Assembly (NCBI GenBank): GCA_023251915.1
Contig: JAHEXW010000004.1
Span: forward strand, 26,733 to 90,732
DNA from: Actinomycetes bacterium
GTDB lineage: Bacteria > Actinomycetota > JAHEXW01
Length of the DNA: 64,000 nucleotides
Direction of reading: 5' to 3'
A program made the position numbers and the translations under genes. Shown here in pieces: positions 4,621 through 7,506 of the stretch (position 1 is the first letter of the stretch; each line of letters starts with the position of its first letter). The notes under the pieces are model-generated. The model was not told the DNA's origin. It saw only the letters and a program-made list of their open reading frames with translations, and made no database searches.

Positions 4621-4649
4621 TTGACACGCATTCTGGCTCGTGTTATAAA
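4621..4649 (+). promoter_or_regulatory. sigma70-like promoter (TTGACA, 17 bp spacer, TATAAA) for the riboswitch operon
   Basis: TTGACA at 4621-4626 and TATAAA at 4644-4649 with exactly 17 bp between them. Confidence 0.6.
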
Positions 4650-4659
4650 AAGACAAATC

Positions 4660-4780
4660 GAATAGCGGTGTTCGGCGTCGTAGGGAAGCCTGTGGAAATC
4701 GGGCACGGTCGCGCCACTGTAACCGGGAGATCTGCGTTTACGCGGGTCTCAACGGGAGTCAGGAACCTAACCGAAACACC
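4660..4780 (+). promoter_or_regulatory. cobalamin (AdoCbl) riboswitch aptamer
   Basis: Conserved cores read directly: GGTG..CGG; AGGGAAGCC; GTGGAAATC; CGCGCCACTGTAACCGGGAG (B12 box GCCACTG at 4713-4719); GTCAGGAACCTAACC. The order and spacing match the RF00174 consensus as I remember it. It sits in the 5' leader of CDS 4899. Confidence 0.8.
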
Positions 4781-4827
4781 GGTGAACAGCTACTCTTCGC
4801 GAGATGAGAGGCGGCTTATTTTTATGT

Positions 4828-4858
4828 CCCTTCGAACGAAGCGTTCGAGGGGTTTTTT
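4828..4858 (+). terminator. intrinsic terminator / riboswitch expression platform
   Basis: CCCTTCGAAC-gaagc-GTTCGAGGGG followed by TTTTTT. It lies between the aptamer and the start codon. Confidence 0.7.
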
Positions 4859-4898
4859 ATTAACTGAAAATAGATTATTTGCGTCTAAAGGAGAAAAG

Positions 4899-5966
4899 AT
4901 GAAACGGTTTACCGCGGTGACATTGATCATCATGGTTGTTCTGCTGGCCTGGCCGGCGATCGGTGTCCTTGGCGATGTCTCGACGACCTCTGCTGTTAAT
5001 AAGGCGACGGCTTATTTACAGACACAACAACAAAACGACGGCAGCTATACCGAGTTTGACGGGCCGGTCAACGCAACTTGCGGCGCCGGGTTGGCAATCG
5101 CGGCGGCCGGTCTGGACGTCAACAACTGGAAGAAGTCCGGACTTTCAGGGATCGATTTTCTCCTCACGCAAAAGGACGCGTTAAGTAACGCCGCGGACGC
5201 GGACGCTAATTCCGCGAAGATCGCGCAGTTGGTTATGCTACTTGTGGCCAGCGGTAAAGACCCGCACGTTTTTGGCGGCGTCGATTGGGTGGCGATTCTG
5301 AGCGGGACACAAAACGCAGCAACCGGCGCCTATGGCACCGCGTTTATCCGGCACCCCTGGATAATGATGGCGCTGCACGCGGCGAACGAGACGATCCCCG
5401 CTAACGCGATAGACTTCCTTGTTGCCAACCAAGAGAGCAACGGCGGATTTGGCGTCAACGGTTTGGGCTCGGGTTCGGACACCAATACGACAGCGATCTG
5501 CCTGGAGGCGCTGGCGGCGGCCGGGGCGGCGAACGACTCGACAGTGGTTCAAAAAGCCGTTGCTTATCTGCACACTCAGCAGAATTCGGATGGCGGTTTT
5601 CCCTGGGCGAAGCCGTCGCCGTGGGGCACCGATTCCGACGCGAGCTCGACGTCGTGGGTAATCCAGGGATTAATCGCGGCCGGCGAGAACCACACCGGAC
5701 CGGATTGGACCGTATCCGGCCATACACCCGTCAGCTTTCTGCTCGGCATGCAGAACACTAGCGGCGCTTTCGGTTACCAGACAACCTGGTCAGACGACAA
5801 TCTAATGTGTACGTATCAAGCAATCCCCGCGCTTATGGGCAAGACGTTTCCGCTGGACTATACGGCGCCGGTAAGCGGCGATCCTAATCCGGTCACCGCG
5901 CCCGGAGGGACATCAACGCCAAATCCGGCGCAGGATCCTCCCTATCTGCCTTACACAGGCCGATGA
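4899..5966 (+). CDS. secreted alpha/alpha-toroid repeat protein (prenyltransferase/terpene-cyclase-like repeats) ending in LPYTG-R
   Basis: AAAGGAG RBS 7 nt upstream. Signal peptide MKRFTAVTLIIMVVLLAWPAIG. Four Q-x-x-x-(D/G)G-(S/G/A)-(F/Y) repeats (QQQNDGSY, QESNGGFG, QQNSDGGFPW, MQNTSGAFGY). The C-terminus is ...PPYLPYTGR followed by stop. Confidence 0.7.
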   Translation: MKRFTAVTLIIMVVLLAWPAIGVLGDVSTTSAVNKATAYLQTQQQNDGSYTEFDGPVNATCGAGLAIAAAGLDVNNWKKSGLSGIDFLLTQKDALSNAADADANSAKIAQLVMLLVASGKDPHVFGGVDWVAILSGTQNAATGAYGTAFIRHPWIMMALHAANETIPANAIDFLVANQESNGGFGVNGLGSGSDTNTTAICLEALAAAGAANDSTVVQKAVAYLHTQQNSDGGFPWAKPSPWGTDSDASSTSWVIQGLIAAGENHTGPDWTVSGHTPVSFLLGMQNTSGAFGYQTTWSDDNLMCTYQAIPALMGKTFPLDYTAPVSGDPNPVTAPGGTSTPNPAQDPPYLPYTGR

Positions 5967-6745
5967 GAATCGCAGCCCGGCTTGGCGCGTTCGCTGTAGC
6001 TGGATTACTGATCATCACATTTGGTGGTGTTGCCAAGGCGACGAGCTATGCCGGCTTGGTCATCAGGCACGGGGACGGTTCCGTCGTGACGCGATGTGTT
6101 TCGTTTGACGAGGCATCAATCTCAGGTATTGACCTTCTTTATCGGTCTGGCCTATCGATTGATGCGCCAACGTCCGGGTACGGCGCCTCGGTTTATGGGA
6201 TTGACGGTGAAGGCACCGCCGAGGATTGGAGCAGCGGTCGCGCGTCTTGGTCATATTGGCACCTGCGGGGCGCTTGGGTTTTCTCGCCCGTCGGGGCCAG
6301 CAGTTACAGCGTTAAACAGGGCGACGTTGAGGGATGGTCATGGGGACCACAGACCGGTCCGACGGCGCCCCCGGCATATTCTTTCGATGAGCTGTATCGC
6401 GACACGTTCGGCGACCCCGCCCCGGCGTCTCCTTCCGCGGGTGCGTCTCAACCTGCGACTGACGCGGCAACTTCTCCAACTTCCCCCGGTATTGCGAGCC
6501 CTGGCGCCACAGCGGGATCAAACGTCTCTGGCGCAAACAGCGTGGGCACGACCGCAAATCCGAGCCTGACTTCCGGCAATAAGACGGCCACCGCGACTGC
6601 CGCTGCCGTCCGGCGTCCGGTTGGCAAAAAGGGGCAACAGGATAACAATTTTTGGAACTACGCTTCGTTTGGAGTATTGTTAGCCGGTTTGAGCGCGGCG
6701 TTTGTCTACTATCAGCTCAAGAACAGGAAACCGACCAAGCCTTAG
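5963..6745 (+). CDS. secreted DUF4430-like (transcobalamin/intrinsic-factor beta-domain-like) protein with Pro/Ser/Thr linker and C-terminal TM anchor
   Basis: ATGA overlap with the upstream gene. Signal peptide MRIAARLGAFAVAGLLIITFGGVAKA. The core YGASVYGIDGEG...WSYWHLRGAWVFSPVGASSYSVKQGD resembles DUF4430 as I recall it. A low-complexity PASPSAGAS...TATATAAA linker follows, then a C-terminal hydrophobic helix and KNRKPTKP. Confidence 0.55.
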   Translation: MRIAARLGAFAVAGLLIITFGGVAKATSYAGLVIRHGDGSVVTRCVSFDEASISGIDLLYRSGLSIDAPTSGYGASVYGIDGEGTAEDWSSGRASWSYWHLRGAWVFSPVGASSYSVKQGDVEGWSWGPQTGPTAPPAYSFDELYRDTFGDPAPASPSAGASQPATDAATSPTSPGIASPGATAGSNVSGANSVGTTANPSLTSGNKTATATAAAVRRPVGKKGQQDNNFWNYASFGVLLAGLSAAFVYYQLKNRKPTKP

Positions 6746-7506
6746 TTGACCCTCACCTTAATAAAGTATTCTTTGCCATGCGGCCAGCGGTTCTGGAGGA
6801 ACCGGTACTTGGTTTCCCAGCGCGCAATCTTTGCCATCAATGATTTTGGCATAAAGGGCGTCCAGGTGCCGTAGGCGTAAGATCCCGCTATCTTGCCGAT
6901 CCGCCGGGCCTCTTTCTTGTACCACCAGTGGGTCCGATATTGATACTCCAGGGGCGGACGACCCTTGATCAGAGCGCGCAGCCAGCGTCCAAATGTAATC
7001 ATTACGCCGGTCGGGCTCCAGAGATCCTTAACGTGAAAGACTACAACGCCCCCTGGCTTCACGACACGCCCCAGCTCGGTCAGCATAAGGTCACTTTCTT
7101 CGGGATTCAGGTATTGTTGCACCGCGATGCTGATGGCCCGGTCGAAGCTGTTATCCTCATACGGCAGACCGGTAACATCACCGACTTCAATGGTGGTCTC
7201 AGCCGTAATGTTGGGTTCCTTTGCGATTCTCGCTTGGCAACGAGCCACCATAGCCGGCGAAAAATCTATAGCGGTAATGCGCGCTACCAATGAACCAAGC
7301 AAGATGATCTGGTCTCCGGCACCGCATCCAGCGTCCAGTATCCGGTCCTCAGGTTGCGGGTCGATCAACTTAATCAGCTCGCGGTCATGAAACGACTGGA
7401 CAGCCGGCGTCATTATCCTGTCGCCCCGAACGGCCTGATGGGGGTCGGCGACAGCCGCTTGGTCTTCCCAAAATGATTTCCACTTTAAATGCTCCTGTTC
7501 TGTCAT
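6742..7506 (-). CDS. class I SAM-dependent methyltransferase
   Basis: Motif I ILDAGCGAGDQI; about 250 aa with the Rossmann methyltransferase layout. Confidence 0.75.
   Translation of the reverse strand: MTEQEHLKWKSFWEDQAAVADPHQAVRGDRIMTPAVQSFHDRELIKLIDPQPEDRILDAGCGAGDQIILLGSLVARITAIDFSPAMVARCQARIAKEPNITAETTIEVGDVTGLPYEDNSFDRAISIAVQQYLNPEESDLMLTELGRVVKPGGVVVFHVKDLWSPTGVMITFGRWLRALIKGRPPLEYQYRTHWWYKKEARRIGKIAGSYAYGTWTPFMPKSLMAKIARWETKYRFLQNRWPHGKEYFIKVRVN

Follow-up and report, generated by a model that had tools for sequence, protein, structure and literature searches.

A two-gene operon behind a cobalamin riboswitch encodes a candidate extracellular corrinoid-capture module in an Actinomycetes bacterium

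Extracellular capture of B12 by Gram-positive-type bacteria is poorly known, and the characterised uptake systems are BtuFCD, ECF-CbrT, BtuM, BacA and the BtuG and BtuH proteins of Bacteroides. To our knowledge, ECF-CbrT works without extracellular binding proteins, as ECF transporters in general are thought to do. ECF-CbrT is an ECF-type cobalamin importer of Gram-positive bacteria (Santos et al., 2018; PMC5997447). In Bacteroides, BtuG and BtuH are surface B12-binding lipoproteins that feed a membrane transporter, and their loci are under the control of B12 riboswitches (PMC8941943). In the animal carriers transcobalamin, intrinsic factor and haptocorrin (PDB 2bb6, 5no0, 2pmv and 4kkj) a single chain forms a toroid at its N terminus and a beta-domain at its C terminus, which enclose cobalamin. 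Burroughs, Balaji, Iyer and Aravind (2007; PMC1796856) described transcobalamin-like proteins of bacteria with a beta-grasp domain; these are secreted, occur fused to toroids or alongside them, have their genes in CbiO/CbiQ operons, and were predicted from computation to scavenge B12. A solved example of bacterial transcobalamin-like SLBB/DUF4430 surface proteins is 3u7z. Literature searches on DUF4430, SCO2321-2325, SLBB-cobalamin and B12 surface proteins returned no binding or regulation experiments on the pair of genes considered here.

This pair lies in a 64 kb stretch of DNA from an Actinomycetes bacterium (the window) and comprises gene A (4899..5966, + strand; 355 aa, ATG at 4899) and gene B (5963..6745, + strand; 260 aa), whose ATG start shares the sequence ATGA with the stop codon of A. 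We propose that the two genes form a B12-repressed operon for an extracellular corrinoid-capture module, an explanation that, taken as a whole, we consider probable.

The promoter can be read directly from the sequence (4621..4649, + strand): a −35 hexamer TTGACA (4621-4626) is followed, after a 17-nt spacer that includes a TG at 4641-4642, by a −10 hexamer TATAAA (4644-4649). The pattern TTGACAC...TA(T/C)AAA is kept in three orthologous leaders (L085, L086 and L082), in agreement with the promoter assignment of the first-pass annotation; a promoter scan overlooked it because the scan accepts only second hexamers that end in T. In the 5′ leader, after this promoter and ahead of gene A, the Rfam cobalamin riboswitch model RF00174 matches 4656..4790 (+ strand) over its full length (model positions 1-189) with 35.7 bits, above the gathering score of 31.5 (E = 2.1e-5 in the 64 kb window and 1.3e-7 in the local region), and the riboswitch suggested on first inspection is thereby recovered. 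The aptamer is compact, with a P2 arm and a P6 extension far shorter than in the Rfam consensus and the P2 arm in effect missing, and it exceeds the Rfam cut-off by just 4 bits. Aptamers of the orthologous leaders score 41.8 (L085), 53.2 (L086) and 54.6 bits (L082, with RF01482). All of the core strings listed in the first-pass annotation are present, but its B12 box was misplaced: by the B12-box consensus, the box is the 3′ element GAGTCAGGAACCTAACC (~4757-4773) and not the CGCGCCACTGTAACC stretch. A trimmed covariance model of our own, run with a cut-off of E ≤ 0.01, had been trained on Chloroflexota aptamers that carry a P2 arm and accordingly missed the compact aptamers of the window, of L085 and of L082, all three of which Rfam detects.

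Two tandem hairpins separate the aptamer from gene A. The strong intrinsic terminator already recognised ahead of the ribosome-binding site is hairpin H2 (4828..4858, + strand), in which 11 bp (7 GC) at 4828-4852 with a folding energy of −17.3 kcal/mol precede six U residues (TTTTTT). Directly upstream stands a second hairpin, H1 (4788-4816), with its UAUUUUUAU U-run (4817-4825; the whole at 4788..4825, + strand; −8.2 kcal/mol), which is the weaker but more conserved of the two. H1 is kept in all four orthologous leaders with a change from CUCU/AGAG to UCUU/AAGA, and it is the sole terminator of the L086 leader; equivalents of H2 are present in L085 and L082 and absent from L086. H1 is thus the conserved terminator-like element of the leader, possibly P13, and its loop CGCGAGAU can be read as complementary to the UCGCG of aptamer loop L5. 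H2 looks unconditional, being retained in every thermodynamic fold of the window leader, constrained or unconstrained, and neither these folds nor pairings drawn by hand revealed an antiterminator for it. Two pairings, one between the 5′ arm of H1 and the 3′ arm of H2 and the other between the 5′ strand of P1 and the 5′ arm of H2, were dropped as weak or unconserved, and the idea of a repeated or mobile hairpin was rejected, as H2 occurs once in the window. The ribosome-binding site, read as GGAG (4890..4893, + strand), stands 5 nt ahead of the ATG of gene A.

Both proteins carry signal peptides, in keeping with the two exported products expected from the first reading, although for A the N terminus (approximately residues 1-25) may be a signal peptide or a signal anchor. 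An alpha/alpha-toroid (approximately residues 30-320) and a disordered tail follow. The toroid assignment is borne out by Pfam matches (SQHop_cyclase_C, 1.5e-12; Prenyltrans, 1.4e-7) and by the predicted fold, which is compatible with the alpha-domain of the carriers but nearer to terpene cyclases than to carrier alpha-domains. Pfam PF01122 (Cobalamin_bind) is absent among the matches of A listed at E ≤ 1, and the PDB sequences matched in a phmmer search were cyclases, with no carrier among them. The catalytic DxDD motif is lost, the alignment placing D-T-N-T where 7xq4 has DVDD; in the alignment of A proteins the consensus is GSDTNxTA and the only nearly invariant residues are D194 and T198. 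As modelled, A is a secreted, non-catalytic alpha/alpha toroid.

The C terminus of A is LPYTGR (5946..5963, + strand), a sortase-type LPXTG motif that is followed by the stop codon in place of a hydrophobic segment and a basic tail. The surface location proposed for the pair is accordingly uncertain for A, because this end has no hydrophobic tail, and stands for B, which its sequence clearly marks as anchored by a C-terminal transmembrane helix. The LPYTGR ending recurs in five homologues (P0122, P0123, P0124, P0126 and P0167), and among the homologues of A a full sortase signal occurs in 17 and a tail-less LP[YF]TGR end in 6. Between orthologues the codons for LPYTGR vary synonymously and the peptide is constant, a sequence pattern that places the C terminus of A under purifying selection.

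Protein B consists of a predicted signal peptide (residues 1-26; 5963-6040), a transcobalamin-beta-like domain of ~110 residues (28-140; 6044-6382), a Pro/Ser/Thr/Ala stalk (~150-225) and a transmembrane helix (229-253; 6647-6721) with a basic tail after it. The DUF4430-like character attributed to it is strongly confirmed at the level of fold and fails at the level of direct sequence comparison, in which Pfam PF14478 (DUF4430) gives 11.4 bits against a gathering score of 23.8; the sequence call is not significant because E is 0.48 and the score is under the cut-off. Searches of PDB chains by sequence gave no match at E ≤ 10, and information came from fold comparison alone. The model of B is a beta-grasp fold with a transcobalamin-type insert, as in DUF4430, and its high-Z structural matches are cobalamin-carrier beta-domains and DUF4430 only, with haptocorrin bound to cobinamide (4kkj) among the top ones. 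The domain also matches a protein built of bona fide DUF4430 repeats (E = 2e-20), and profile-profile comparison with those repeats included gives a probability of 88%. B belongs to the divergent SCO2322-type branch, a large family (Pfam SCO2322): it comprises 763 clusters (50% identity) at E ≤ 1e-10, PF28005 has no match in window B (P0001) and matches in homologues from P0010 onward, and the Cys-rich insert of most SCO2322-type members is missing in the window clade.

The genomic surroundings of relatives connect the pair to transport. Related loci were scanned with a trimmed alignment of the B domain, the full B alignment having no conserved stretch. A homologue of A lies directly upstream of B in most of 80 Chloroflexota loci and also in Actinomycetota loci. 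Natural single chains of toroid and beta-domain, for which the first-pass annotation had suggested looking, exist both in this order (P0341 and P0357) and in reverse (P0247 and P0371), and fusions of A homologues with DUF4430 or with ECF S components occur as well. That A and B are joined in the window by a frameshift was rejected: there is no slippery site, and in L086 the genes are 8 nt apart and A still ends in LPYTGR. A cobalamin riboswitch is found upstream in 67 of the 86 related loci and ECF S and/or T genes, usually directly after B, in 61 of them (within the DNA fetched); an ECF importer is physically linked in about nine-tenths of the relatives that are informative. In many related loci genes for corrinoid adenosyltransferases of the PduO or CobA type follow the ECF genes. 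The ECF S components adjoining A and B in relatives match no NCBIfam family at E ≤ 0.001. Some relatives have the arrangement riboswitch-B-ECF and no detectable A, and because of these A may be dispensable.

The window holds a divergent orphan variant of this widespread bacterial system, without the usual ECF genes. tblastn searches for ECF S and T homologues were negative throughout the 64 kb, and the scanned ORFs, which cover most of the window with the exception of a few small ORFs, include no sortase, ECF, BtuFCD or B12-dependent gene and no B12 transporter gene. The downstream neighbour is, as first described, a methyltransferase (UbiE-type; 6742-7506, − strand). Operons of A and B without ECF genes also occur at L085, L086, L082, L023, L050 and L059. 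The view of a self-contained operon without a transporter is therefore correct for this lineage and does not extend to the family, where ECF genes occur in 61 of 86 loci.

Nor is the architecture new, as had been supposed: the concept was predicted in 2007, and families for both proteins already exist in databases. The best NCBIfam matches of A and B are the SCO2321 (NF053823) and SCO2322 (NF040672) families, which share the adjacent-gene arrangement and, through PF28005, include relatives of B, but both window proteins fall far under the curated cut-offs (83 versus 300 bits for A, over the toroid part only; 18.2 versus 85 bits for B). The SCO2321 and SCO2322 family names carry no functional annotation. 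As in the operons described by Burroughs et al. (2007), a secreted SLBB protein occurs here together with a toroid. Unlike those operons, the window has no CbiQ/CbiO-type (ECF) genes; B is SCO2322-type and falls under the DUF4430 cut-off, a gene of its own encodes the toroid, and the bacteria that carry the pair belong to Actinomycetota and Chloroflexota, not to the low-GC Gram-positives. Riboswitches are not mentioned in the searched text of that paper. In comparison with the animal carriers, the pair is split into two genes, B is membrane-anchored, control is by a riboswitch, PF01122 is not matched and cobalamin binding is a prediction. ECF-CbrT belongs to the transporter class linked to A and B in relatives and lacking in the window. 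BtuG and BtuH share with the pair the concept of accessory B12 capture at the surface, but their folds are unrelated, and they are lipid-anchored and act in an outer-membrane/TonB context.

In the mechanism that we favour, ample intracellular cobalamin would bind the leader aptamer and transcription would halt at the leader terminator or terminators, and scarcity would allow A and B to be produced and exported. B, held in the membrane by its C-terminal helix on a flexible stalk, would display its transcobalamin-beta-like (SLBB/DUF4430-type) domain. On the model of transcobalamin, a corrinoid would be gripped between A and B and handed on to an importer in the membrane. In the family at large this importer would be the dedicated ECF transporter, composed of S, T and a fused A-A′ ATPase, whose genes come directly after the pair; for the window pair it would have to be encoded elsewhere in the genome. 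We infer the OFF switch, the complex of A and B, corrinoid binding and the hand-off from riboswitch matches in the window and in the orthologous leaders, terminator hairpins between aptamer and ribosome-binding site, the fold of B, a toroid without DxDD, the pairing and fusions of the two genes, their links to riboswitches and ECF genes, and the published prediction. Counted against the same reading are the low aptamer score and missing P2 arm, the scores of B under the DUF4430 and SCO2322 cut-offs, the nearness of A to terpene cyclases, the lack of a B12 transporter in the scanned part of the window, the unconditional look of H2 and the relatives without A.

Several other explanations share part of this evidence. 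The same architecture could serve a different ligand, a corrinoid precursor or other cobamide (cobinamide, cobyric acid or a form whose lower base differs), or the task of the pair could be to choose among cobamides and not to capture cobalamin as such. Burroughs et al. (2007) proposed 'B12 or its precursors', cobinamide is the ligand in the haptocorrin structure that B resembles, and the adenosyltransferase genes beside the ECF genes are in keeping with a salvage of incomplete corrinoids; however, sequence does not discriminate between ligands, and the riboswitch reports the complete cofactor pool rather than precursors. We regard this variant as unlikely, though it deserves some weight. That the pair sequesters corrinoids at the surface, for storage, protection or withholding from competitors, and feeds no transporter would explain why it stands alone here and in the six other ECF-less operons. 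Such a role is at odds with the physical link of most informative relatives to an ECF importer and with B12 repression, the pattern expected for uptake, and we hold it to be improbable.

Decay of the window aptamer into a non-functional copy, with the operon constitutively silenced or expressed, is very improbable in our estimation. It would account for the marginal score, the missing P2 arm and a strong H2 without a visible antiterminator, but four leaders whose downstream B proteins share only 41-66% identity have all kept the promoter, the aptamer cores and H1, compensatory changes are seen in P1 and P4, both genes are intact, and the C terminus of A is under purifying selection. The least credible account, to which we attach hardly any probability, makes A an extracellular enzyme whose toroid, of terpenoid cyclase-like or glycoside-hydrolase-like type, has its substrate in the envelope, with B as an unrelated beta-grasp accessory and B12 as a regulatory link only. 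Against it stand the D-T-N-T sequence in place of DxDD, the export of A, the fusion of its homologues to DUF4430/SCO2322 domains and ECF S components, and operon partners that are transporter and adenosyltransferase genes.

The capture module, our preferred reading, leaves three puzzles in the window copy: why the operon carries no transporter gene, why the sortase motif of A has no tail, and why a single aptamer is followed by two terminators in tandem. In a more far-reaching version, which we consider distinctly doubtful, A and B of the window clade would be a free-standing two-chain bacterial 'transcobalamin', a surface cobalamin clamp without a dedicated ECF partner, and the conserved tail-less LPYTG-R of A would act as a sortase-type signal of minimal form, through which A becomes covalently attached to the wall or else to B. 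If this were true, attachment to B would unite after translation the halves that relatives and animals unite in one gene, the locus would be a present-day intermediate on the way to the animal B12 carriers, and LPYTG-R would be a new kind of sorting signal. For the capture module itself, corrinoid binding by the pair, if true, would confirm the 2007 prediction, define an extracellular receptor layer for ECF transporters and bear on the proposal that animals took their B12 carriers from bacteria.

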